Below are positions 2,373-37,629 of a stretch of DNA of 37,629 bases, piece after piece. The stretch comes from a virus, in the IMG/VR virus record IMGVR_UViG_3300037473_000262, one strand, 5' to 3'. Position 1 is the first letter of the stretch. Each line of letters opens with the position of its first letter. Position numbers and translations under genes: made by a program. The notes under the pieces were generated by a model, which was not told the DNA's origin, made no database searches, and was given only the letters and a program-made list of their open reading frames with translations.

Positions 2373-2831
2373 CTAGTTCGAAGGCAGCACGGTGAAGTTG
2401 TCGGTCTGGCCTGCGCGAAACAGAAAGGGCACTGTGGTGCTTGAGGCCCATGAAGTCGGGCCGCCTGACTGTGGCAGCACAATGCTTGCGCCGGTTGTGT
2501 TGTTCCGAAGCAGGATGTTTCCGCTCCAGTTCGGCGCGACCGAAAAAGACAATCCGGTCTGTGGAATCGTCACGTTCTGGCCGGCGCTTAACAGCGCGCC
2601 GCCGAACCACGGCGCGCCGCTAAAACTGATCGACTGCCCGCCACCGCCGCTCGAGCAGAACAGCGCGCCGTCGAAGCGCCCGGTCTTGCCTCGCAGGCTG
2701 CCGAAGTTGCACGACGCGCCAGTGACCTGCGCGAGCGCGCGCACCCACGGATGCTGCAGGTCGAGCGGCAGCGTCAGGCCGATCTCAGTCGCGACCTGCG
2801 ACATGGCAACAGCACCAGCGGATAGAGTCAT
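2373..2831 (-). CDS. Hypothetical protein downstream of the tail fibre (152 aa, Gly/Ser-rich beta-type composition)
   Basis: The start was moved to the ATG at 2831, which lies behind GGAGGCGAA and forms an ATGA overlap with the stop of 2828..3475. The track's longer N-terminus is Arg/Ala-rich. Confidence 0.65.
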   Translation of the reverse strand: MTLSAGAVAMSQVATEIGLTLPLDLQHPWVRALAQVTGASCNFGSLRGKTGRFDGALFCSSGGGGQSISFSGAPWFGGALLSAGQNVTIPQTGLSFSVAPNWSGNILLRNNTTGASIVLPQSGGPTSWASSTTVPFLFRAGQTDNFTVLPSN

Positions 2832-3475
2832 TTCGCCTCCAGCAGCGCGCGCAGCCGCATCACTTCCTCGGCCAGTTCGGCGCATGCAACAAGCGCAGCC
2901 TGGCCATACGCGACCGCGAGGCGCTCGTCGCCCCGCACAGCTTCTGGCATGAATGCCTGTAGCGATTGCGCACCAACACCTACCTGCCGCTTCCCGGTCT
3001 CGGTGTTGGTGAACGTGCCGCGCTTGAGCGCTGCCAGCCGTTTCAGGAAATCAGGCGCCAGAGGTTGCCAGTCGGTCTTCATGCGCTCATCCGATGCAGA
3101 CGTGATGTCGCCGAACGCCCACAGGTTTCCCGAGTCGTCGAGCGTCATCAACTGCTGGGTGAAGGCGTCGTTGACGATGTTGAAGATGCCGCCGATCACG
3201 CGCAGCGTCTTCGACGGCGTCGTAGCGCCGTTGCCGAGAAGCACCACCTGCGCGCCGTTTGTGCCGTCGCCTGATCCGTCCACCTTCAGCATCGCAGGGG
3301 TCGTCGGCGTGGATACCACGGTGATCGTCCCCGTCGAGGTGAACCCGTCGGGCTCGACAGGCATGGCGTTGGCGTTGACCTGATTCGCGATGAAATTCAG
3401 GTCCGCCATCACCTGCGATGCGTCTGCGGTGGTGCCGTTCTGAAGGTTGTCAGGTAGCGATCCGACGATGGACAT
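2828..3475 (-). CDS. Short tail fibre with a C-terminal peptidase-S74 intramolecular chaperone domain
   Basis: 215 aa. SASDERMKTDWQPL...VGVGAQSLQAFMPEAV...LAVAYGQ...LEAK matches the SDxRxK autoproteolytic chaperone signature. A GNGATTPSKTLRV..G.F.I.ND...D.GNL module is shared with 9882..11264. Confidence 0.8.
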   Translation of the reverse strand: MSIVGSLPDNLQNGTTADASQVMADLNFIANQVNANAMPVEPDGFTSTGTITVVSTPTTPAMLKVDGSGDGTNGAQVVLLGNGATTPSKTLRVIGGIFNIVNDAFTQQLMTLDDSGNLWAFGDITSASDERMKTDWQPLAPDFLKRLAALKRGTFTNTETGKRQVGVGAQSLQAFMPEAVRGDERLAVAYGQAALVACAELAEEVMRLRALLEAK

Positions 3476-14131: not shown

Positions 14132-16138
14132 CTATCCTCTTCGGGGCAATGTGGTGAAGTAGGTCGCACCCTGCGGATTGACGCCGATGTTCACGCCTTC
14201 CGGCAAAGCGTCATTGCGCTGCGTGCTCAGTACATGCACCGCAGACTCCAAACCTTCGATCAGCGTGCGGTGCGGACTGGTCTCGGGGAGGCTACCTTTA
14301 TTTCCCGAGCGGTCCACGTCGAATTTGTAGCCGCCGGCCATGGCATTCACCGTGTGTTTTGCGTTGACCTGGTCGACGAGAAACAGACGCCTTGCTTTCG
14401 ATTCCGTCCGAATCAGTGGCGAGAGTGATCCACGCGAGACGTTGATGTAACCGCCGCGCATCGGATACAGATTTGCAGACCGAAGAGCAGGCACGATCGG
14501 CATGCGATCAGCCTGGTCGAGTACGTCGCCCGGGACGTATGCCGTGAGCCGGGCCCTCGGGAAAGCAGCGCGCACGAGCGCGACGATGTCAGGCACTGCG
14601 TCTTTCGGCGTAGCGGGCGCAATCCAGTCGGCTGCGACCACGAGTCGCTGTCCCTCTATGCTCACCAGTGCGGCCGTCGTTTCCGTACCCGAAGCGTTGA
14701 AAGCGAGCATCATCGGGTTTTGCTGCGTCGGCTCATAGTCCGACACGAGATTCCACTGTCCGAAGTCCTCGTACACGGCCACTCCCGAAAACACGCGCTG
14801 GAAGTAGGCAAGCGCATTCAGGATGTCGCGCTTGCCGCTGGGGAAGTTCTGGATCTCGGCGACGAGCTTCGCGTGCGCGCCACGACCGCCGACCAGCACA
14901 ATGTCGCCCGCTAGAAAAAATGGCTGCATACCCATGATGAACTGCGCCTTGTCGCGATCCTGCGGCGCGGACAGCGGACGCAGCGCCAGCGTCACGCCGC
15001 GGCGAATCATCTCGGCGCGCATCGGCTGCATGAGCCACTCGTCCAGCGAGTTTTTCTCGATCGCCACCGCCGCATCATTGAACCGGGCGGACGTCTCGAA
15101 TGCGTCCTCGATCACCTGATCGGGTTTCCAGAATTCGCCAGACGACGCGTGCACGTATATCTTCGTGCCCAGACGACTGACCACCACCCGGCCAGACCGA
15201 TCACTCTTCTTCGTGTCGGTCGTACGTGCTGGATCGGTAATGACGACCTTCGGCACCCACGGCGCCGGGTCGAGCGCGATCTCCGCAATCTGGTCGTCGG
15301 AGAACGGCTTGTCCTGCGAGCCGATCGCCTGCAGCATGTACTCCTGCATGAAACCTCGAAGTTGGCCCGCCCGCTCCTTCTCGTCGCGCGTCTTGCGGAT
15401 CCACTCCATCGGGTATCGATCGGGCCATTGGGATTCGGCCGCCGGATCGTCGATATCCCCATTGCAGATCGGGTACCGGCGACAGGTCCAGTCCGGGTTG
15501 TCGCGCAGCCGCGTGACCATGCAATCCTCGGCAAGGGGCGTCTGCGTGAAGCGGATCTTGCCCTTGACCTTGTCCATCGCCGGCATCAGCTCGAGATAGA
15601 GTTTGCGCATGGACGCGTCGACCGCCGCCTTGTCCTTCACACGCTCCATGTTCTCGATGTCGTCGAGGTACGCGCGATCGGGCCGCAGGTCGTGCCACTT
15701 GAAGCCGCGCAATTCCTCCTCCCAGCCGTGCGCCTCAAGCAGCACACCGTTCGAGAGTTCCATCTGATGCTCGTTCCACAGCCTGCCCGACTCCTTCAGA
15801 CGGCCGAACAGGCTCTGCAACTTCATGTTGCGAGACGCCTCGAACTTGATCGCCTCAAGCCTCTGGCAGGCCTTCGTGTACGTCTCGCCGAGGATCAAGC
15901 AATATCCAAAATTTCCGAATGCCGCCTCGATCAACAGGAACTCCTCCGACAGCGTGGACTTCGCCCCTTCCCGGAACGCCTCGATCAGCACGAACTCATC
16001 CTGACTGCGCCAGAGGTCCATAATCTCGACGTGAAACGGTGGCGACGTCTGCGGGTGACGATGGGGAAACAGCATCGCCGAAGCGAGCGCACGGTCGTCG
16101 GAGAGCGCCTTGACAAGGGCTGCGTTGGATAGGGCCAT
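14132..16138 (-). CDS. terL: Terminase large subunit (668 aa)
   Basis: There is a Walker-A-like AFREGAKST, an acidic Walker-B-type region, and a C-terminal RNaseH-like nuclease region (VVITDPARTTD...). The start was trimmed to MALSNAALVK at 16138 because the upstream 71 codons look non-protein-like. Confidence 0.85.
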   Translation of the reverse strand: MALSNAALVKALSDDRALASAMLFPHRHPQTSPPFHVEIMDLWRSQDEFVLIEAFREGAKSTLSEEFLLIEAAFGNFGYCLILGETYTKACQRLEAIKFEASRNMKLQSLFGRLKESGRLWNEHQMELSNGVLLEAHGWEEELRGFKWHDLRPDRAYLDDIENMERVKDKAAVDASMRKLYLELMPAMDKVKGKIRFTQTPLAEDCMVTRLRDNPDWTCRRYPICNGDIDDPAAESQWPDRYPMEWIRKTRDEKERAGQLRGFMQEYMLQAIGSQDKPFSDDQIAEIALDPAPWVPKVVITDPARTTDTKKSDRSGRVVVSRLGTKIYVHASSGEFWKPDQVIEDAFETSARFNDAAVAIEKNSLDEWLMQPMRAEMIRRGVTLALRPLSAPQDRDKAQFIMGMQPFFLAGDIVLVGGRGAHAKLVAEIQNFPSGKRDILNALAYFQRVFSGVAVYEDFGQWNLVSDYEPTQQNPMMLAFNASGTETTAALVSIEGQRLVVAADWIAPATPKDAVPDIVALVRAAFPRARLTAYVPGDVLDQADRMPIVPALRSANLYPMRGGYINVSRGSLSPLIRTESKARRLFLVDQVNAKHTVNAMAGGYKFDVDRSGNKGSLPETSPHRTLIEGLESAVHVLSTQRNDALPEGVNIGVNPQGATYFTTLPRRG

Positions 16139-16259
16139 GCGCGCGACGGTAATTTCTTTTCCCGGGCCATGCGTGTTTTTTCGGTGCGCGGATTGGGGAG
16201 AGGCTCCCCGAATTCTGTGGACCCCGTCCGGCGGGGGGCTAGGGTGGTCCCAGAGTTGA

Positions 16260-16660
16260 GAATCATTCTCGATTGGACGCTGATAACGGCATCGCGGCGC
16301 GTCAAAGCGGTGATAACATCTATTATGTAAAATCGTGATGCACCGCACCAACTCAATGCAATCAATGACTTACGCTTGCCGTCAGTGTCAATCATCGCAT
16401 ATATGCTATTGGTGCGATGCGACATTGGAGAATTGTTGTCAGATCGTAATGCAATGTCAGCCGTGTGCAACGATGTCCGAAACGCCGCAAATCAATGTTT
16501 TTCAGGCTCATCCGGAACCTCAAACCGCCACCTCTCCATTCATTCCCATCGCAATCATTGAGCCTTTCCTCGCGCGTGTGCGTGCGCGCGTAATAATGAT
16601 GTTCGCCGCTATCGGGTCAGCGCGTCTCACCTCAAACGTTTAGGGTGACCGAATCGCTAC
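16260..16660. other. AT-rich island (about 47% GC against more than 60% elsewhere) with iterated CAATCA and TGATAAC motifs, upstream of terL
   Basis: GC was counted per 60-nt line (25-31 of 60). CAATCA-type motifs occur near 16359, 16388, 16489 and 16551. TGATAAC occurs twice (16281-16287 and 16311-16317). Confidence 0.7.
16335..16643 (+). CDS. Possible Cys-rich protein with a hydrophobic C-terminus (102 aa); doubtful
   Basis: ORF track. The Cys pattern is CxxC-x5-CxxC-x6-CC-x5-CxxC in YACRQCQSSHICYWCDATLENCCQIVMQCQPC. The ORF is on the opposite strand to its neighbours. There is no SD sequence and GC3 is low. Confidence 0.25.
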   Translation: MMHRTNSMQSMTYACRQCQSSHICYWCDATLENCCQIVMQCQPCATMSETPQINVFQAHPEPQTATSPFIPIAIIEPFLARVRARVIMMFAAIGSARLTSNV

Positions 16661-16672
16661 GCGGTCCGATCG

Positions 16673-16852
16673 TCACTGCACCGGCGCGTACCCGATGTAC
16701 GGGTAGCCGTTCGCCATCACCCATTCGTCACGGTCTGCGTATCCGCTCACGTTGGCCATGTGATCAGCCAGTTCCTCGATCGTGGGGATTCGCTCGCTGT
16801 CGAAGTATCCCCATGGGATGGCGCGGTTTGGACTGATGATGGCGTAGAGCAT
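16673..16852 (-). CDS. Small hypothetical protein (59 aa), not in the ORF track
   Basis: Hand translation gives MLYAIISPNRAIPWGYFDSERIPTIEELADHMANVSGYADRDEWVMANGYPYIGYAPVQ. GGAGA lies 5 nt upstream of the ATG at 16852. Confidence 0.55.
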   Translation of the reverse strand: MLYAIISPNRAIPWGYFDSERIPTIEELADHMANVSGYADRDEWVMANGYPYIGYAPVQ

Positions 16853-16961
16853 GGTGTTCTCCGTGTCGGGCTCCGTTCTGTGCCGGACCGATGGTCAGGG
16901 TGTGACTTCCCACCCGCTTTGTTAAGCGTTGCAAGGTCGCGGCGGGTATATCCGGGTTCGT

Positions 16962-17124
16962 CAGACTGCCGCGGCTTGGTCCGGTCGGCCATTCCATCTG
17001 ATCGTGGCGGGGCTGCTCCGCCATTCACCACTGTTTATCGAGCTGGCGCGACACCAGTTGTTCGGGCCTGGGCTAATGGGCCCCCGTCGGCGTTTCTTCT
17101 ATACCGCGCTGCCTGTTTGCGGTT
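16962..17124. repeat. Copy A of a conserved noncoding element (paralogue of 18972..19161)
   Basis: Shared blocks are cagactgccgcg, ggccWttccatctg, gtttatcg and ggctgggYtaatgggcccccgtcggcgtttcttctatMccgcg...gcggtt. The blocks are separated by variable hairpin-forming spacers, and the indels break every reading frame. Confidence 0.75.
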
Positions 17125-17188
17125 GAGAGCGGCAGCATTGGCAGATGGTCGCCGCTGCTTACGCGGATCGTTGCGCTTGCGCTCTCTC

Positions 17189-17289
17189 GGGTGGCATCTC
17201 AAAGCCTTAGACTTCGCGTCATCCATGCGTCTAAGGTCCCACGTTGTGGAGATGCCACCCGGGAGAAGTTCCGACGTAAAGCGTCGGAA
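17189..17289. other. Long nested hairpin plus a second 8-bp hairpin in an ORF-free region
   Basis: GGGTGGCATCTC (17189-17200) pairs with GAGATGCCACCC (17249-17260). The inner stem is CCTTAGAC (17205-17212) with GTCTAAGG (17229-17236). A second hairpin is TTCCGACG-taaag-CGTCGGAA (17269-17289). Confidence 0.7.
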
Positions 17290-17345
17290 CACCCTCGTGA
17301 TGATTCATCAATCAAACGCCTCGTCTGGAGGCGGCTGTGCCACGT

Positions 17346-17531
17346 TCAAGGCGCAGACTCAAAGCTCTCGCGCGGTCTCTCGGGATGCCGCCTCTCCGCC
17401 TCTTCGAGCCTCATGTCGGCCAGTGCGATGCACGCTGCGCACCACAACGGCTGACGGCTGCGAACCATCCTGAGCAGTGGAATCTGCCATTCACTACCGC
17501 AGGATGGGCAAAGAACTGAATCTGGCTTCAT
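17346..17531 (-). CDS. Possible zinc-ribbon protein (61 aa); uncertain
   Basis: CPSC-x19-CAAC. There is no SD sequence; the ATG abuts the U-tract of the upstream terminator. GC3 is about 66%, lower than in neighbouring genes. Confidence 0.4.
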   Translation of the reverse strand: MKPDSVLCPSCGSEWQIPLLRMVRSRQPLWCAACIALADMRLEEAERRHPERPRESFESAP

Positions 17532-17557
17532 CGAAAAAGAGCCCGGCGGACCGGGCT
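17532..17557 (-). terminator. Intrinsic terminator at the end of the early (replication) operon
   Basis: The minus strand reads AGCCCGG-TCCG-CCGGGCT followed by CTTTTTCG, 40 nt downstream of the stop of 17597..17959. Confidence 0.65.
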
Positions 17558-17596: not shown

Positions 17597-17959
17597 TCAC
17601 TCTACGAATATTTCCCGTTGCCCGCGAATCATGGCGTTCATCGCATCCTGCAGCGCCGATGCATGATCAATCGGTGGCAGTGCAATCGGGACCTCAGGCA
17701 GCGGTTTCACGGTCCGCGCATACAGCCACGGAAGTTTGCCGATGCTCGATCCCTTGCGATTGAAGGTCCGCTTGATACGCTTCACGTATCCCTCTTCAGC
17801 CAGCACGCGCAGGCACTTGCACGCACACGAGATCGTGATGTGAAGTCGCATGGAGAGTTGCTGCTGAGTCATTGGCCCGTAAGTGTCGAGTGCCGTGAAT
17901 ATGATCCGCGTGCTCGAGTCGTCTCGCTGAAGCTCGGTAGGGTCGGGCATTCTCGTCAC
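17597..17959 (-). CDS. Winged-helix (MarR-like) DNA-binding protein, 120 aa
   Basis: QQQLSMRLHITISCACKCLRVLAEEGYVKRIKR is a wHTH-like segment. It is paralogous to 27125..27448. The alternative ATG at 17950 lies behind GAGG. Confidence 0.65.
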   Translation of the reverse strand: MTRMPDPTELQRDDSSTRIIFTALDTYGPMTQQQLSMRLHITISCACKCLRVLAEEGYVKRIKRTFNRKGSSIGKLPWLYARTVKPLPEVPIALPPIDHASALQDAMNAMIRGQREIFVE

Positions 17960-18812: not shown

Positions 18813-18971
18813 CGCTTCTCCGTTGCGTTTCGATGTTGCCGTTAGCGACCAGGATTTTCATGGGCCTGCGCAAGAACGAAGACCTCAAAACCTGGCTCCT
18901 GCTTCTCAAGAACCACACCCGTAGCGCGCCTCAAATCGAAGCGCGGTAGCGTTGGGTTTATCTAACCTGAG

Positions 18972-19161
18972 CAGACTGCCGCGCCCGTGTGCGGTGGCCT
19001 TTCCATCTGCTCCAAGGGGTACACATTCAAGCTCCCCAAGTTCGGTACGTTTATCGCGGCAGGCGCTACGCCGAATCCGTCTCCGGATCCTTTTCTCCGC
19101 TAGGGCTGGGTTATGGCCCCCCGTTCGGCTTTCTTCTATCCCGCGGCGCCTATTCGCGGTT
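18972..19161. repeat. Copy B of the conserved noncoding element (paralogue of 16962..17124)
   Basis: It carries the same ordered sequence blocks as copy A, in the same orientation, and lies in the 437-nt ORF-free gap between the primase gene and the small-gene cluster. Confidence 0.75.
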
Positions 19162-19249
19162 ACCGCTGACACCGGGCTCTCCGGTTCACGCTTGTCAGAG
19201 CGTTTCGACAGCGTCGGTTAAACCTACGCTGTCGACGTCACGCAAAATC

Positions 19250-20149
19250 TCACCTGCCCATTACCAGCTTCGCGTGGCGCATGATCTGCATGCGCACCCG
19301 AGCTGCCGCCGCTGCATCGCCACCCCACTCCTGGAGTGCGTCCGCCCAATCGGTCCCGCGAATCCCTTCCGGATACGCGACACCGCAACCCATCCGTTCG
19401 GCGGCCTTCCTGCCGTTCTCCACGCCCTTGTTCATGCCGCGATCGCGCTGCGTCTGCCAGTCGTTGTCTGCGCACACGACGGTCATGCCGCGCGGTTTCG
19501 TGTCTTCAGACACTGCGAGCAGATTGCCGGCGTCGAAGCACACAACCACGGTTGCGTTTGGCAGCGACTGGAACACCGCGAGGCCCGTGGCGAATCCCTC
19601 GACAAACGCCGTCACGACGGATCTGGCGCGGGACATGACAAACGACGCGCCCTTGACCGGACAACCCTTGCGGTAGAGTTTTTCGCCTTCCATGGAGATC
19701 GTCTGCAGGTTGACCAGCGCGCCGTAGCGGTACATCGGAATGACCAGGTCATCTCCATGCAGCCTGAGACCCTTGCAGCCCTGCAGCGACAGCCCTTTGC
19801 GTTCGAAGTAAGCATGCCACTGGGTGAGGATGGGGAGCGCGTCCCAATGGTCGCGTGCGGCATGGATTGCACGACCGCGTTCGGCCGCTTCGCGCTGGCG
19901 GTTAGCGCGGATACGCTCGTCCATCGCCCGCCGGTCACGCGGCTCCATCGGCGTATCGTCACGCCACTCGATAGCCTCGACGTCCGAAGCGAAGTTCAGG
20001 AAGTACCCACGCTGGCCGCCGATCCAGAGCTTGTACGCGCCGTTCTTCTTGCGCGGCTTATCCGTCGTCGGGCAGCGGTGCCACTTGCCGTCGTCGACCA
20101 CTTCGCGTGGCGTCAGACCGTGGGCATTGAGAGCATCCATAAATCTCAT
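19250..20149 (-). CDS. DNA primase, Toprim-domain (phage/plasmid P4-alpha-like N-terminal part)
   Basis: GKWHRCPTTDKPRKKNGAYKL is a zinc-binding/primase N-motif type segment. EGFATGLAV ... VVCADNDW is the Toprim E...DxD pattern. Confidence 0.8.
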   Translation of the reverse strand: MRFMDALNAHGLTPREVVDDGKWHRCPTTDKPRKKNGAYKLWIGGQRGYFLNFASDVEAIEWRDDTPMEPRDRRAMDERIRANRQREAAERGRAIHAARDHWDALPILTQWHAYFERKGLSLQGCKGLRLHGDDLVIPMYRYGALVNLQTISMEGEKLYRKGCPVKGASFVMSRARSVVTAFVEGFATGLAVFQSLPNATVVVCFDAGNLLAVSEDTKPRGMTVVCADNDWQTQRDRGMNKGVENGRKAAERMGCGVAYPEGIRGTDWADALQEWGGDAAAAARVRMQIMRHAKLVMGR

Positions 20150-21693
20150 GCGGCCTTCCTGCGTGCGGCTCTCACACGGGCCCAGTAAGCCTTGTCCATG
20201 TTCTCGAGCTTCTTGCGCACCTCGGGTGTCATGGGCTTGGGATCGGTCGTATAGAAATCTGCCTTTGCCATCTGGCCGGTCAACTGCTTATAGATCGCAT
20301 ACGCACGGCTGCGGGCGCGCATGAGGTCATCCGGACAGGCATTGCGTGCGTACGTGCAAACCTGAGGCCATACATCGGCATTGAGACGGTTATGCATGCC
20401 GGACGACAGCATTTCCTCAAGCGTCCCGGCAACATGCTCGATGGTCGGCCGGCGCGGATATTCATGCCCGCAGTTCGGGCAGAACGGACGACGTTTATGA
20501 AGCACCTTGCAGTTCGGGCACTTCATCATCTCGTCTTCTGCTTTCGGCTTCGCCTTCTTCGGCTTTGGCTTCTTCGTACCGTCATCAAGCTCGGTCGCAC
20601 CGGTCTCGAAGAATTCGTTCATCTCATCCCAGAACCGTTCGCAGTTGCCGGAATGGTCGAGCACGATCAGTTCGGTTTTGCCGGTCTCGTGACTAGTGCG
20701 CAAACCCCGGCCGAGTAACTGGATATGGTCGGAAAGAGACTTGCGCAGCGGTCGGCACATGATTACGCAGCCGATGTCTTCGACGTCAAAACCTTTGCTC
20801 GCCTTGCTCACAGTGACAAGTCCGCGAATGTAGGAATCCGGCTTGCGAAACTCCTGGACAATTTCGGCGCACTCTTCGTCGGATTCCTTGCTGGTGTACA
20901 CGACACACTGAATGCCTGCCTTGGTGAATTGGCGATGAATCTCGCGAGCATGATCAACCGTGATCGCGCTGCAGATGAATTTCTGGTTATTGCCGTGCCT
21001 CAGGTATTCGGTGACACAATCACCAATCACCGGGAGCGCACGGCTGGTTGCTTCCTTGCCGACCCACTCACCATCGGCTTTGGTTTTCACGCCGGTCATG
21101 TCCGGCGCAGACGGTGAAAAGATGCGATACGGCACAAGCGCGCCCTGCTCGATTAACCGGTTTGTCGTCTCGACGTTGATCAGGCTGTCGTAAATGAGCC
21201 CCAAGCCTTTCGTGAGCGGCGTGGCACTCAATCCCAAGCCTTTTACGTCGCCCTCGGCGAGGCGCTTCTTCGTCTCGCCGTGGACCGTATGACACTCGTC
21301 GACGACGATAAGGTCAGGCTTGGGATCTGCAGGCCAGCCACGGCGCATGACTGTCTGGACGGACAAGATCTGTGAGCGCAGGTATGGACGATATCTCCAG
21401 TGCTTCTGCTTCACAACGCCGTGATCGATGCCAAATTGGTCGAAAGTTCTCGACGTCTGCTCAACGAGATTTTCCCGATCGACGACGAAATGCGACTGCT
21501 TGCCGCGCCCTTGTGAGAGATAAACCACGCAAGCGGAAATGCGAGTCTTGCCGGCGCCGGTCGGCGCGCATAGCAGAACGTTGCGCGCGCCGTGTTCGTA
21601 GGCATCGCGCACACGACGAACCGCGTCGATCTGATACGGCCGCAATTTGAAATGGTCGTACGCGGCCTGCTCTTCTGGCGTGATGGGTCTCAT
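20146..21693 (-). CDS. Superfamily-2 DEAD/DEAH-box helicase with a C-terminal zinc ribbon
   Basis: Walker A is CAPTGAGKT and the DEAH box is VVDECH. Helicase C motifs are present, and CPNCKVLHKRRPFCPNCGH forms the zinc ribbon. Confidence 0.85.
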   Translation of the reverse strand: MRPITPEEQAAYDHFKLRPYQIDAVRRVRDAYEHGARNVLLCAPTGAGKTRISACVVYLSQGRGKQSHFVVDRENLVEQTSRTFDQFGIDHGVVKQKHWRYRPYLRSQILSVQTVMRRGWPADPKPDLIVVDECHTVHGETKKRLAEGDVKGLGLSATPLTKGLGLIYDSLINVETTNRLIEQGALVPYRIFSPSAPDMTGVKTKADGEWVGKEATSRALPVIGDCVTEYLRHGNNQKFICSAITVDHAREIHRQFTKAGIQCVVYTSKESDEECAEIVQEFRKPDSYIRGLVTVSKASKGFDVEDIGCVIMCRPLRKSLSDHIQLLGRGLRTSHETGKTELIVLDHSGNCERFWDEMNEFFETGATELDDGTKKPKPKKAKPKAEDEMMKCPNCKVLHKRRPFCPNCGHEYPRRPTIEHVAGTLEEMLSSGMHNRLNADVWPQVCTYARNACPDDLMRARSRAYAIYKQLTGQMAKADFYTTDPKPMTPEVRKKLENMDKAYWARVRAARRKAA

Positions 21694-22733
21694 TGCCCAC
21701 CCTCCACAAGCCTCCGGACGAGGCCGACGACGTCGCGATCTTCCTTCGCGCCAGTGAGTTTGCGCAGTTCAGCGAATTTCGCGCCGAACCAGTTCAAACG
21801 TTTTGCGTCACGTGTGGTTTTATCGCTCAGATCGCCTACCCGGTTTTCCAGGTGAAACACCTGCTGCGCCAGCTTGCTGATTTCCTCGGCCTGGTCAGAT
21901 GCATTCAGCGAGTCGATTTGCCGGTTGAGGTTGCTCACCTGCTTGCGCAGAGAATCCATTTCAGCCCAAACCTCGTCGGAATCAGGTTGCGGTGAGGAAT
22001 CCTCAACGGCGTTGTCACGCGAAGACGGCGCGGTTGCTGCCGCCTCCGACTTCTTTCCCCGTGCCATTTTCGACACGTCCATCACGCCGACGTCCCCATG
22101 CTTGTTCCGGTAGAAACGTGGTTCACCGCCAGACGCACGAACGTCGTCCGCCTTCTTTTGCGCTGCTTCAGGCACTGTCGGAGACGTTACGCCGCTCGAG
22201 ATACCTTCACCGGAACCTGCGTCCTCACCTAAAACGTTTAGGGTGACACTGCCCAAACCTTCATCTTCGGAGACGTCTGCATGTGACGCAGCCCGGATCT
22301 TGGCGACGAAGGGCTGCGAGACGTGACACGTTTTCGCAATATCCGCATCGCTCCACTTCGACCATTCTTCATCGTCAAGCAACATCCCGACGGCACGACG
22401 CTTGTCGTCATTGGTGCGGCGCTTGCCGTGATTCCAGTTCGCGCCGAGCGCATAGAGCTGCGCGTCGCGAAAGGTGCCGTCAAGCACATCCGCCTGGATC
22501 TCGCCTATCGACGCGGCCAGATGCGCCTCGTAACGGTGCCAGCCATCGCTGAGAAAGTAATAAGTCCGGTCGAAGACCACCGTCACCGGCGGAAACTTCG
22601 CGCCATCGCGAAGCGCCTCGGCGTACTCGGCGACCACATTCGGATCAATATCGACCCGAGGTTGCAGATTCGGGTGCCGGCGCACCTCAGACAGTTTCAA
22701 TAGCTTAGGCCGCGGCTTGGTTTGCACGTGCAA
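21690..22733 (-). CDS. ParB-like nuclease-domain protein (347 aa)
   Basis: The N-terminal HPNLQPR...VAEYAEALRDGAKFPPVTVV...SDGWHRYEA is a ParB/Srx-type motif, and the C-terminus is coiled-coil. The start codon is uncertain (TTG at 22733, GTG at 22727). Confidence 0.75.
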   Translation of the reverse strand: MHVQTKPRPKLLKLSEVRRHPNLQPRVDIDPNVVAEYAEALRDGAKFPPVTVVFDRTYYFLSDGWHRYEAHLAASIGEIQADVLDGTFRDAQLYALGANWNHGKRRTNDDKRRAVGMLLDDEEWSKWSDADIAKTCHVSQPFVAKIRAASHADVSEDEGLGSVTLNVLGEDAGSGEGISSGVTSPTVPEAAQKKADDVRASGGEPRFYRNKHGDVGVMDVSKMARGKKSEAAATAPSSRDNAVEDSSPQPDSDEVWAEMDSLRKQVSNLNRQIDSLNASDQAEEISKLAQQVFHLENRVGDLSDKTTRDAKRLNWFGAKFAELRKLTGAKEDRDVVGLVRRLVEGGQ

Positions 22734-23331: not shown

Positions 23332-24078
23332 ATGTCGAATCTTGCCGAGAGATTGCGAGAGGCGCGCACGACCGCGGGCATGTCGCAGACAGAGCTGGCG
23401 CAGCGATCGGGGGTTTCTCAGTCCACGATCGCTAACATCGAGTCGGGTAGGAACGAAGGGAGCAAACACATTTTGCAGATTGCAGACGCACTCAATACCA
23501 ACCCGAACTGGTTGTTGGAGGGTCGATTACCCAGGATGGTGCACGTCGTCCGGACCGTCCCGCCAGATGAGGTCCGTAGCGGTGATCCGAATGTTCTGCC
23601 GGAAGAGCGGCCGGGCGGGTACTCGCCATTTCCTACAGTGCTGCCCTCCGTGCTGCCCGACGTGTGGATGGATCTATCCGAGGTTCGGTCGCACCAGCGA
23701 GAACGGGCGCCTGAGTGGCGGAAGACCCGCGATCGGGCTCTCTGCTTGAAGACAGCGGTGTTCGGTGATCTGGGTACGCATCCCACAAGATGTCGTGTCA
23801 TTACAGTGCCCGATGACAGCATGGCGCCGTTCGTCTTCAAGGACGACCTTTTCATGATCGACATTAGCAGGGCGGCGCCGCGTGACGGGCGCATCTACGC
23901 AGTGCTGTTTGAGGGCGACTTGCTTGTCAGACAGATATTCAAGCTCCCAGGCGGCGTGGTTGTTCTGCACGCTTACGACGACAAGCATTTCCCGGACAAA
24001 CATATCTCGTTCGACCAGGCGCCGTCGATCGAAGTGGTTGGCGAATATGTCTACAGGGCAGGCGCGGCAAGGGTGTGA
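23332..24078 (+). CDS. cI: cI-type repressor: N-terminal XRE HTH plus C-terminal S24 (LexA-like) autopeptidase
   Basis: MSQTELAQRSGVSQSTIANIESG is the HTH segment. The C-terminal VPDDSMAP...LLVRQIFKL carries the Ser/Lys dyad context. Confidence 0.9.
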   Translation: MSNLAERLREARTTAGMSQTELAQRSGVSQSTIANIESGRNEGSKHILQIADALNTNPNWLLEGRLPRMVHVVRTVPPDEVRSGDPNVLPEERPGGYSPFPTVLPSVLPDVWMDLSEVRSHQRERAPEWRKTRDRALCLKTAVFGDLGTHPTRCRVITVPDDSMAPFVFKDDLFMIDISRAAPRDGRIYAVLFEGDLLVRQIFKLPGGVVVLHAYDDKHFPDKHISFDQAPSIEVVGEYVYRAGAARV

Positions 24079-27448: not shown

Positions 27449-27783
27449 CCGACAACCTGTCTATCGTCGGCGGTCGCGCGATGACCATCCGGGAGGTCGC
27501 CAGGATCCTGCGCGTGTCGTACGGAACGGTCTACGCGCACCGCGCCGAGATGGGTTTCTTCCAGATCGGCGCGGCGTGGCGGGTCTTCCCTCAGAAGCTC
27601 CAGGAATTTCTGGACGGTTATAATCAGCCCCGGCCGGCGCGGACGGATAAGGAAACTGTATGTCAATCCGAAAACGTGGAGACGTGTATCACGTTGACAT
27701 CCGCAAACCAGACGGCGGTCGAATTAGATGCTCTGCTGGGACCGACGACCGCAAGAAGGCGCAGGAGTATCACGACAAGTTGA
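27445..27783 (+). CDS. xis: Excisionase-family HTH protein (HTH_17/AlpA-like)
   Basis: MTIREVARILRVSYGTVYAHRAEMGFFQIGAAWRV is the HTH segment. The gene sits directly upstream of int, with an ATGA overlap to the upstream gene. Its 3-prime end overlaps int by 124 nt. Confidence 0.65.
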   Translation: MTDNLSIVGGRAMTIREVARILRVSYGTVYAHRAEMGFFQIGAAWRVFPQKLQEFLDGYNQPRPARTDKETVCQSENVETCITLTSANQTAVELDALLGPTTARRRRSITTS

Positions 27784-28715
27784 AGCATGAGCTGTGGCGC
27801 GTGTCGAAGCTTGGCGAAAAGCCGTCGCGTTCGTTCGACGACGCGGCGCTGAGGTTCCTGAAGGAACAGTCGAACAAGGCGGACTTCGACAGCAAGAAGC
27901 GGCACCTGAAGCACTTTCGGTCGGTCTTCGCAGGTCGGGAGTTGGGCTCGCTCAAGCGGGACGAGATTTACGACGCACTGCCCGACGTCGACCTGCGAGT
28001 GAAGACCGAAGACAGGCCAGTCGCCAATGCGACGAAGAACCGGTACCTCGCCACCATCCGGGCAATGCTGAATGATGCGGCGCACGATTGGGAGTGGATC
28101 GACAAGGCACCGAAGCTGCCTGATCTGGAGGAAGGAAGCAGCCGTATCCGGTGGATCACGCGCGACGAGGCGCAGCGTCTGCTGGGCACTATCCGGACGG
28201 AGTGGATGCGCGACGCGACGATCTTCGGGTTTGCGACGGGGCTCCGGCAGGCGAATATCCTCGGTCTCGAATGGTCGCAGGTTGACCTCGTGCGCAAGCG
28301 CGCATGGGTGCATCCGGACCAGGCAAAGGCGAGAAAGCCTATCGGCGTGCCGCTGAACGCGGAAGCGGTCGAAGTGATCCGGCGGCAGATCGGCAAGCAC
28401 CAGACGCACGTGTTTGTCAGGAACGGGAAGGTTCTGGAGTATTGGGACGCAGTGCAGTGGCGCCTGGCATGTGGGCGGGCCGGAATCGAGAACTTCACGT
28501 TTCACGATGTCCGGCACACCTGGGCCAGTTGGCATGTTCAGAACGGTACGCCTCTGAACCGGCTAATGGAGCTTGGCGGCTGGTCGACGTACGAGATGGT
28601 TTTGCGTTACGCGCATCTCGCACCTGATCATCTGGCACAGCACGCCGACGCGGTCACAATCTGGGCACACAATACGTCGGAGAATGTGGGCACAGGTAAC
28701 AAAAAAGCCGGCTAG
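27660..28715 (+). CDS. int: Tyrosine integrase
   Basis: 351 aa. ATGLRQANILGLEW (Arg), FHDVRHTWASWHV (HxxR) and LGGWSTYEMVLRYAHL (catalytic Tyr) are present. The gene is adjacent to the tRNA fragment. Confidence 0.92.
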   Translation: MSIRKRGDVYHVDIRKPDGGRIRCSAGTDDRKKAQEYHDKLKHELWRVSKLGEKPSRSFDDAALRFLKEQSNKADFDSKKRHLKHFRSVFAGRELGSLKRDEIYDALPDVDLRVKTEDRPVANATKNRYLATIRAMLNDAAHDWEWIDKAPKLPDLEEGSSRIRWITRDEAQRLLGTIRTEWMRDATIFGFATGLRQANILGLEWSQVDLVRKRAWVHPDQAKARKPIGVPLNAEAVEVIRRQIGKHQTHVFVRNGKVLEYWDAVQWRLACGRAGIENFTFHDVRHTWASWHVQNGTPLNRLMELGGWSTYEMVLRYAHLAPDHLAQHADAVTIWAHNTSENVGTGNKKAG

Positions 28716-36697: not shown

Positions 36698-37629
36698 TCA
36701 CTGCAACGTGAATCCGTACGAGTTCCCGCCGCCGCTGTAATAGGGACTCGAATTGAACGCGCCGCTGAAATCTCCGCCACTGAACGATCCGCTGGCGGGA
36801 TTGAAAAGGTTAGAAAACGCGTTTTGCACCTGGGTATTGTTTCCAATTCCCTGAATGGCGTTCGACACAAGACTTCCTGCCGCTCCTGCGCCAGCCGACT
36901 GTGCCTGGAACGGCACGGACTGTGCGCCATTGCCGTAGTTCAGATAGGGGATGATCTGGCTGTTGATCGCACTGGCCGAAGACAGCGGCCCCTGCTCGAG
37001 CTGCTGCTGATAGGTCGCAGCAAGTTGGCCCGGCGCTGCGGACAGCCCCATTGCGGTCTGGTATGGCAACTGGCCAGCTTCGTACGTAGCACCTGCACCT
37101 GCCTGCCCCAACGTCGCACCCTGTCCTGCCAACTGTCCTGCCTGTCCCGCAGCCTGACCGTAGCCCTGCAGCCCCTGCAGCGCGCGCGACAGCTGGTTGT
37201 TCTGCCAGTCGATGTTGAAGTTCGACAGCGCCTGGTTCTGCACACCGGCGCCGGCAGCCGACGAGCCGAGACCGTACATGGAGTTGGTCGCGCCGGTCTG
37301 CTGCGTGACCTGGTTTAGCGTGCGATCGTATAGCGCGCTTTGCGGGTCCAGGCCCATGTTGAAGACCTGTTGCCCAGCGTTCAGCAGACCCTGCTGCGCG
37401 CCGAAATCTAGGCCGGCAGCGCCCTGCAGTTGGGAACCCAGATTGGCATACTGGCCACTCGCCATGTTGGCGTACTGCTGCGCGCCGGCCCCGTACTGGT
37501 TTTGTGACGCGAGACCACTCTGCAAGGCCTGCAGATACAGCGGATTCTGCTGCGTGAGCGCGCCCTGCGTGCCGAGTTCCTGCGCCAGCAACTGCTGCCA
37601 CGATTGATCGGCCGTGACGAGTCCGGTCG
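36698..37629 (-). CDS. C-terminal part of the junction-spanning Gly/Gln/Asn/Ser/Tyr-rich virion protein (continues at 128..248)
   Basis: The reading frame is open to the window end and joins 1..248 in frame through the 127-nt overlap. Low-complexity Q/G/A/N composition runs throughout. Confidence 0.8.
   Translation of the reverse strand, partial: TGLVTADQSWQQLLAQELGTQGALTQQNPLYLQALQSGLASQNQYGAGAQQYANMASGQYANLGSQLQGAAGLDFGAQQGLLNAGQQVFNMGLDPQSALYDRTLNQVTQQTGATNSMYGLGSSAAGAGVQNQALSNFNIDWQNNQLSRALQGLQGYGQAAGQAGQLAGQGATLGQAGAGATYEAGQLPYQTAMGLSAAPGQLAATYQQQLEQGPLSSASAINSQIIPYLNYGNGAQSVPFQAQSAGAGAAGSLVSNAIQGIGNNTQVQNAFSNLFNPASGSFSGGDFSGAFNSSPYYSGGGNSYGFTLQ
37503..37629. repeat. Terminal direct repeat, the second copy of nt 1-127
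   Basis: 127/127 identity with the window start. Confidence 0.95.

Follow-up and report, generated by a model that had tools for sequence, protein, structure and literature searches.

The sequence analysed here, referred to as the window, is the 37,629-nt virus record IMGVR_UViG_3300037473_000262 of IMG/VR, a temperate-phage-like genome (~37.5 kb) on a JGI metagenome contig. The first and last 127 nt are identical (1-127 = 37503-37629), which means that the genome was circularly assembled or is terminally repeated and is therefore complete. This report concerns a structured non-coding element that occurs twice in the window, as copy A and copy B, in two gaps between genes. A cI-like repressor gene (23332-24078) and an integrase gene (27660-28715) lie on the plus strand, and from ~22.7 kb leftwards the annotated genes are on the minus strand. 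These begin with a ParB-like gene (21690-22733), an SF2 helicase gene (20146-21693) and a gene for a P4-alpha-like Toprim primase (19250-20149). The primase gene is followed by a 437-nt gap that holds copy B, by small genes of 64, 79 and 174 codons, by a MarR-type helix-turn-helix (HTH) gene (17597-17959) and by a gene encoding a 61-aa Zn-ribbon protein (17346-17531). A 493-nt gap with copy A separates the Zn-ribbon gene from a 59-aa gene (16673-16852), beyond which a gap of ~540 nt leads to the large terminase, portal and capsid genes. Both copies are on the sense (minus) strand of this single long early-to-late direction of transcription. A protein search with the 61-aa Zn-ribbon protein as query returned no homologues. 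Relatives of the large terminase in isolated phages are all below 60% identity, with ~24-27% in the best hits among the matches listed.

The initial annotation of this region had described a duplicated non-coding element, and the two stretches do align as ordered blocks on the minus strand. An independent repeat search recovered a 54-nt block at 78% identity (17071-17124 and 19108-19161). No third copy was found in the window, either with a profile from both copies or with a covariance model from homologues. The extent of the blocks had been drawn too short, as the conserved element reaches ~16895 in copy A and ~18880-18900 in copy B. The conserved RNA core of copy A, from helix P1 to the pseudoknot described below, spans 193 nt (16931-17123, minus strand; covariance model 201.6 bits, E 3e-63). 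That of copy B spans 220 nt (18941-19160, minus strand; 158.7 bits, E 3e-49) and belongs to another subtype with an extra hairpin, P3a. Each core has a 3' extension. In copy A (16895-16930) this is a small linker hairpin followed by P8, GGGUG-GGAAGUCA-CACCC (16898-16915), in which 3/4 pairs show compensatory change (alignment A6); on the plus strand the P8 hairpin is a terminator-like site in a consensus scan. In copy B (18880-18940) a variable hairpin is followed by the conserved CGGGUGUGGUUCUUGAGAAG (18902-18921), a motif kept in all B-type copies. The two subtypes each have orthologues elsewhere, and the copies are thus not recent duplicates. Subtype is also independent of genomic slot, since the B subtype is found after the Zn-ribbon gene in two related loci (L001 and L089).

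Homologues were collected as 104 loci (L numbers) from IMG/VR, JGI metagenomes and one isolate genome, that of Paraburkholderia phenoliruptrix LMG 22037. Retrieval used three sequence patterns taken from conserved blocks, and two proteins, the primase and the large terminase, served as further anchors. An initial pattern scan of metagenomes gave no matches and the single genome-collection scan gave one locus; DNA searches of isolated phages and plasmids found no match to the region or to either element type. A covariance model (Infernal) built from 26 diverse copies gave 72 matches at 55-207 bits, representing ~44 distinct sequences, with exactly two in the window. Two matches to the third pattern were discarded: L091, at 19 bits, lies inside a flagellar rod gene and is a false positive, and L086 had neither an nhmmer hit nor a covariance-model match at E<=1. 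The element is carried by a lineage of Burkholderia-type (Burkholderiaceae) temperate phages that includes a Paraburkholderia phenoliruptrix prophage (contig NZ_CADIKB010000028.1), where it lies at ~1271-1535 of locus L012.

RNAalifold and a direct search for covarying helices converged on the same fold, of nine helices and one loop-to-3'-tail pseudoknot over ~200 nt. From 5' to 3' on the minus strand the order is P1, a linker, P2, P3, the optional P3a, P4, the single strand CGAUAAAC, P5 and the P6/P7 arm. P1, at the 5' end, is a hairpin of the form CCGC-loop-GCGG with a conserved loop, and the purine-rich linker AUAGAAGAAA joins it to P2. The four pairs of P2, CGGG (17083-17086) with CCCG (16943-16946) in copy A, close a multi-helix junction from which P3, P4, P5 and the P6/P7 arm radiate. 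Six pair combinations occur at P2 in homologues (CGGG/CCCG, GCGG/CCGC, GUGG/CCAC, CAGG/CCUG, UGGG/CCCA and ACGG/CCGU). P4 is a short hairpin (17043-17057 in copy A) whose loop provides the 5' strand of the pseudoknot. In copy A, GUCGCG (17047-17052) in that loop pairs with CGCGAC (16936-16941), and this 3' strand begins one base past the 3' strand of P2. The pseudoknot is paired in 99-100% of cells, shows compensatory change in 3/6 pairs in alignment A6 and 4/6 in alignment A9, and is found as GUCGCG, GUAGCG, GCCGCG, GUCGAG and GCCGAG, each with a matching partner. The single strand CGAUAAAC between P4 and P5 is invariant. In copy A the P6/P7 arm (16959-17004) combines CAGAU/GUCUG with an inner helix, CGG/CCG, and has GGAAUGGC..CAGCAG as its conserved internal loop. 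The whole of P6 is either CAGAU/GUCUG or, in about half of the copies, CGACC/GGUCG, with compensatory change in 5-6 of 7 pairs. P3a is confined to the copy-B subtype and absent from copy A. In copy B it reads GGAUCCG-GAGA-CGGAUUC (19073-19090, minus strand) and is capped by a GNRA tetraloop. Its stem is preserved by compensatory changes in homologues, and its loop is GNRA (GAGA, GCAA, GUAA or GAAA) in 6/7 B-type copies examined, L008/L018 having the longer GUAACU. A variable hairpin and a conserved CGGGUG(G/U)GG motif lie 3' of the core, and the copy-A subtype forms P8 from this motif.

The fold was evaluated in two alignments. In a plain MAFFT alignment of 38 copies, 98.8% of 1440 cells in paired positions are standard pairs, against 35-40% when the partners are slid by 1-3 columns, and 22/40 pairs change on both sides. 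In an alignment of 44 distinct copies fitted to the covariance model, and leaning toward that model for this reason, the figure is 96.4%, against 30-44% with slid partners, and 24/41 pairs show compensatory change. The observed values were reached in none of 500 shuffles in either alignment. Compensatory base changes are present throughout the element. The hairpins proposed there within the spacers between blocks were recovered as helices of the fold, with TGGCGG/CCGCCA corresponding to P5, GGGCC/GGCCC and GGGC/GCCC to P3, and ACCGC/GCGGT to P1, and they too change in a compensatory manner in homologues. A scan for additional tertiary or loop-loop covariation gave scattered subtype-linked correlations only, and no consecutive pairs.

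The regions flanking the cores contain further hairpins. The nested 12- and 8-bp hairpins and the separate 8-bp hairpin noted earlier at 17189-17289 are present in the minimum-free-energy fold, but they lie outside the conserved element. They belong to a stretch (17135-17345) without a homologue in any of the 104 related loci, which holds the nested hairpins (17189-17260), the single hairpin (17269-17289) and a terminator-like hairpin (17317-17333). This stretch seems to have been inserted between the Zn-ribbon gene and copy A in this genome alone. Two more hairpins lie between the primase stop codon and copy B (19161-19249, minus strand), one an 11-bp stem with the loop AGGUUUAACCG and the other CCGG-AGAGC-CCGG. 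The latter reads GCGG-AGAGC-CCGC in L002, a compensatory change, and the B-type element may continue in the 5' direction through these two hairpins.

Which strand folds can be read from the paired columns, where 73 cells are G:U and 3 are A:C. This asymmetry identifies the minus strand as the one that folds and excludes a symmetric double-stranded DNA site. The element had been described on the plus strand, and its functional strand is the opposite one. All 72 copies are sense-oriented relative to the neighbouring genes.

Conservation was shown to act on a folded nucleic acid and not on a protein. Variable columns are spread over the three codon positions as 40, 45 and 42, of 65 each, without 3-periodicity. 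Indel runs are dominated by lengths of 1 nt (45) and 2 nt (20), and those between the window copies are mostly of 1-2 nt, so that the two copies stand in different reading frames, as had been observed. Stop codons interrupt the sense frames in nearly all copies. In many relatives the Zn-ribbon open reading frame (ORF) reads into the element and ends at a UAA inside the conserved CGAUAAAC, and the same conserved bases are read in different frames by different copies. The 493-nt region had been called free of ORFs; ORFs of 85-237 aa are in fact present, though without in-frame conservation of any of them. The element does not encode a protein.

The transcription signals around the element were also considered. 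A sigma-70 consensus scan found no promoter at the element, and conserved hexamers with a 16-18 nt spacing were not found there. The lack of a conserved promoter means that the RNA must come from transcription reading on from the upstream gene; copy B would have to be transcribed via the primase gene and copy A via the Zn-ribbon gene. A consensus scan placed a terminator-like hairpin on the minus strand directly after the Zn-ribbon gene (17317-17333), upstream of copy A and outside the RNA. Similar terminator-like hairpins lie just upstream of the copies in L008/L018/L095 and L088. The same scan found a second terminator-like hairpin on the minus strand, AGCCCGGUCCGCCGGGCU followed by CUUUUUC (17540-17557), which ends 9 nt before the Zn-ribbon start codon and suggests a possible regulated checkpoint before this gene. 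A weak Rfam hit to 'Betaproteobacteria toxic sRNA' was caused by this hairpin, and a similar one was read by eye before the Zn-ribbon gene of L050. The run of A or U residues after the core was considered as a sense-strand terminator and rejected, as no adjacent GC hairpin precedes it. At loci with a convergent gene, the 59-aa gene may be terminated by a hairpin on the opposite strand, GCGGG..CCCGC, with U7 after it.

The element was compared with catalogued RNA families. The Rfam covariance scan that had been proposed for both copies shows that no catalogued family fits either of them. None of the 4227 models of Rfam 15 matched anywhere in the window at gathering thresholds, and nothing at E<=10 overlapped either copy. 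The A-type copy of L050 gave chance hits only, at 11-21 bits. ARAGORN found no tRNA or tmRNA genes in the window. A group I intron is contradicted by the absence of an RF00028 match at the element, by a helix order that differs from the P3-P7 pseudoknot topology and by primase and Zn-ribbon proteins that are complete without a downstream exon. The 34-45-nt tandem repeats of a type III antitoxin (ToxI-like) were not found in or near either copy, nor was a consistent downstream protein partner. No description of the motif was found in the searchable literature. The element represents a new family of structured non-coding RNA, and its likeness to other orphan structured RNAs borne by phages is one of kind only. 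GOLLD and ROOL are described as orphan RNAs of complex fold that are often prophage-borne (PMC5737381; PMC12286853). The present element shows no similarity to them and is 3-4 times smaller. GOLLD and ROOL are RNAs of 500-800 nt from other phyla, and their genes often have tRNAs nearby.

The genomic context of the copies is variable. The usual order is one or more MarR-type genes, the Zn-ribbon gene, the element, the 59-aa gene in either orientation and the large terminase gene. A second home is directly after the primase gene, as for copy B of the window and for the copies in L002, L008/L018, L083, L095 and L100. In one case, L010, the element precedes a helicase gene and follows a cro-like gene at a distance of a few hundred nt, and in another, L090, it precedes an integrase gene. 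Many phages have a convergent gene as the next one. In eleven loci (L053-L056, L059, L060, L062, L065, L066, L073 and L077) the Zn-ribbon and 59-aa genes abut or overlap and leave no room for the element, and the covariance model finds none there. The element is optional and not tied to any one neighbouring gene. Between phages with 78-79% nucleotide identity in their large terminase genes, its core reaches 80-90% identity; judged by this comparison of sequences, it is under purifying selection. The small neighbouring proteins are only 45-70% identical. An HNH endonuclease ORF of ~185 aa (L045:4266-4823; also in L076, L081, L041 and L027/L048) has been inserted between a duplicated P1, at the end of the Zn-ribbon gene, and a complete element. 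The pattern looks like homing beside a conserved RNA gene.

The slot after the primase gene is occupied by a different RNA in relatives without copy B. Betaproteobacteria-1 RNA (RF02932) was detected there at 83-101 bits in L004 (6899-7019), L001 (7882-8002), L003 (6899-7019), L037 (2814-2934) and L006 (7107-7230). It lies on the sense strand and starts ~10 nt after the primase stop codon in L004 and ~230 nt after it in L006. This family is listed in Rfam as 'Gene; sRNA'. Both RNAs are structured, phage-borne and without assigned function, and they share exactly the same slot and strand, but Betaproteobacteria-1 RNA is unrelated in sequence and fold, being ~120 nt long with three hairpins and no pseudoknot. 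The window element does not match RF02932 even at E<=10 (threshold 49.4 bits). In the window, L001, L004/L080 and L037, the small genes lying between the primase and 59-aa genes form a block enclosed by two structured RNAs, which are either the element twice or Betaproteobacteria-1 RNA and the element.

What would such an RNA do? The interpretation given most weight here, and held tentatively at a little under even confidence, is that the element is an autonomous accessory non-coding RNA of the early lytic programme, an 'RNA moron' co-transcribed with the early genes. The folded domain would act as an RNA in its own right, through binding of a protein or small ligand or through catalysis, and would not regulate the adjacent gene. 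It would probably persist as a stable piece after the long early transcript is made, and would fill the same niche as Betaproteobacteria-1 RNA in the identical post-primase slot of sister phages. An early-operon RNA independent of its neighbours is indicated by its occurrence beside different genes (downstream of those for the primase and the Zn-ribbon protein, upstream of those for a helicase and an integrase), by the often convergent next gene and by its absence in close relatives. The GNRA tetraloops on the optional P3a are a hallmark of RNA. Among the explanations offered in the initial annotation, a processed or stand-alone RNA is the one most compatible with the data, with the discrete RNA itself being a prediction.

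Several observations weigh against an autonomous RNA. No conserved promoter or terminator bounds a discrete RNA, and its release from the transcript is thus assumed. Given the terminator-like hairpins upstream of several copies, transcription may reach the element solely by read-through. An element at module boundaries would be placed just as well for acting in cis, in transcription or in RNA processing. The retrieval patterns were taken from the element itself, and divergent members or other contexts may have been missed. In addition, the copies share ancestry (Infernal effective sequence number 1.67), so that fewer independent events lie behind the cell counts given above than the figures suggest; this kinship affects neither the number of distinct pair types nor the slide controls.

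A more specific proposal is that the element is the first member of a new class of catalytic or ligand- or protein-binding phage RNA, for example a self-cleaving ribozyme punctuating early transcripts, or a sponge or decoy directed against a host factor or defence signal, which phages would exchange with other RNAs, such as Betaproteobacteria-1 RNA, at dedicated non-coding RNA (ncRNA) cargo slots as they do protein morons. This is considered doubtful. A sponge for CsrA/RsmA acting through GGA motifs was examined and set aside, as a hand count gave ~5 GGA in 250 GC-rich nt, approximately the chance expectation.

Could the element instead punctuate the transcript? The domain would then self-cleave, as a new class of ribozyme, or direct or block host RNases, and the early transcript would be cut into blocks with separate stabilities. 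The small-gene block bracketed by two structured RNAs agrees with such a role. So does the element itself, which is always sense, optional and at module boundaries, with a pseudoknotted core that has many invariant unpaired bases. A precedent exists in prophage self-cleaving ribozymes of the hammerhead type, which sometimes flank blocks of unrelated genes (PMC3088659). Prophage ribozymes (hammerhead types, twister, pistol and hatchet) resemble the element in being optional, sense and intergenic in long phage transcripts. However, the element is much larger, its ~200 nt exceeding most self-cleaving classes, and no Rfam ribozyme model matches it even at E<=10. A cleavage site cannot be derived from the sequence, and where the next gene is convergent nothing downstream would need to be separated. 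Punctuation of this kind is the foremost rival of an autonomous RNA, and is regarded as unlikely.

Antitermination in cis had been suggested at the outset, by analogy with put or nut sites, and this idea survives in weakened form as a rather improbable one. The nascent RNA would modify its polymerase, as put RNA does, or counter Rho, and allow it to pass downstream terminators. The put RNA of HK022, with ~70 nt and two stem-loops, is found immediately downstream of PL and PR and upstream of the terminators that it suppresses, and it acts in cis without phage proteins. Like putL and putR, the element is a cis-encoded phage RNA with two copies per genome, in the window, both sense to a long operon that runs from early to late genes in one direction. 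The terminator-like hairpin at 17540-17557 lies downstream of copy B, and the element of L010 is placed a few hundred nt downstream of a cro-like gene, comparable to nutR in lambda. In contrast to put, however, the core measures 193-220 nt and folds into 9-10 helices with a pseudoknot. The element is located kilobases into the operon and can be dispensed with, being absent from close relatives with the same gene order. The window copies are ~4 and ~6 kb from the cI-like gene, with terminator-like hairpins both upstream and downstream. In many phages the element faces a convergent gene, and in several loci the terminator is upstream of it and not downstream. A scan down to position 16000 found no sense-strand terminator from copy A toward the terminase gene. 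The nut site of lambda is a short boxA and boxB hairpin that works with a phage-encoded N-type protein, and the element is unlike it in size and complexity.

A role at the level of DNA is very unlikely. The sense strand, as single-stranded DNA, would serve as a primase-loading or priming signal, as part of a replication origin or as a recombination site. Copy B and its orthologues do lie directly after the primase gene, and the distance of 2 kb between copy A and copy B loosely recalls the ori/crr pair of P4. On the other hand, the 73:3 ratio of G:U to A:C is incompatible with a symmetric double-stranded site, the pseudoknotted multi-helix junction and the GNRA-capped hairpins are hallmarks of RNA, and the alternative occupant of the same slot is a curated RNA family. 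Iterons and tandem repeats were not found in or near either copy.

The core does resemble a riboswitch aptamer in its closing helix, junction, loop-to-tail pseudoknot and invariant junction bases, and the variable hairpin 3' of the core is terminator-like in L010. A ligand-sensing leader that controls the downstream genes is nevertheless highly improbable. Downstream, the genes are convergent or unrelated, and the core is followed neither by a consistent terminator nor by a consistent platform for sequestering a Shine-Dalgarno (SD) sequence. A candidate switch helix between ACCCGC and a downstream GCGGGU was rejected on reading the alignment, as it shows no covariation, the downstream motif being invariant while its partner varies.

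A duplicated promoter with a structured leader, also among the earlier suggestions, is barely credible. The window copies carry AACCGC-N15-TATAGA/GATAGA, which resembles a weak promoter, with 15 nt between AACCGC and TATAGA and not the 17 nt that had been given. The hexamer TATAGA is not conserved and becomes ACTCAG, CTCAAG or GGGTAG in homologues with intact helices, while the helices around it are maintained. The proposed -35 sequence and spacer fall within P1, where compensatory change is found, and the consensus scan was empty. A decayed remnant of a protein-coding gene, which might account for the Zn-ribbon ORF running into the element of many relatives and stopping at the UAA of CGAUAAAC, has a negligible probability, given the lack of 3-periodicity, the 1-2-nt indels, the sense-frame stops, the differing frames and the compensatory changes throughout.

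The element is of interest for several reasons. Complex pseudoknotted RNAs of this size (~200 nt) in which many unpaired bases are invariant are in most cases ribozymes, aptamers of riboswitches or RNAs with specific protein partners. To our knowledge, new classes of such RNAs are rare, and each has historically revealed new biochemistry. The family is well supported and is found in a tractable setting, the temperate phages of Burkholderiaceae, with one prophage in the culture-collection strain P. phenoliruptrix LMG 22037. Sister phages that lack the element, or that carry a different RNA in the same slot, provide a natural experiment. The orphan Betaproteobacteria-1 RNA gains a defined phage genomic context, and the shared slot suggests that exchangeable 'ncRNA cargo slots' exist at the early-operon boundaries of phages.

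Other features were observed in the window and in the related loci. C4 antisense RNA (RF01695) occurs in the related phages L001 (1656-1745) and L003 (932-1024), and int-alpA RNA (RF02996) in L003 (2094-2163); neither family was detected in the window at gathering thresholds. In the P. phenoliruptrix prophage (L012), a serine recombinase gene (2493-3314, minus strand) lies between the 59-aa and terminase genes. In the window, the gap of ~540 nt from the 59-aa gene to the likely terminase start, MALSNAAL... (16136-16672), is without a conserved ORF and matches no Rfam family. Two blocks in it, ~16173-16270 and ~16496-16591, keep 74-88% identity across nearly all related loci, and a late promoter, a packaging site or a further non-coding element could lie in them. 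A 24-nt near-palindrome, CTCACCT(C/A)AAACGTTTAGGGTGAC, occurs twice in the window, at 16626-16649 in this gap upstream of the terminase gene and at 22224-22247 inside the ParB-like ORF, and may be a parS-like or other putative protein-binding site.

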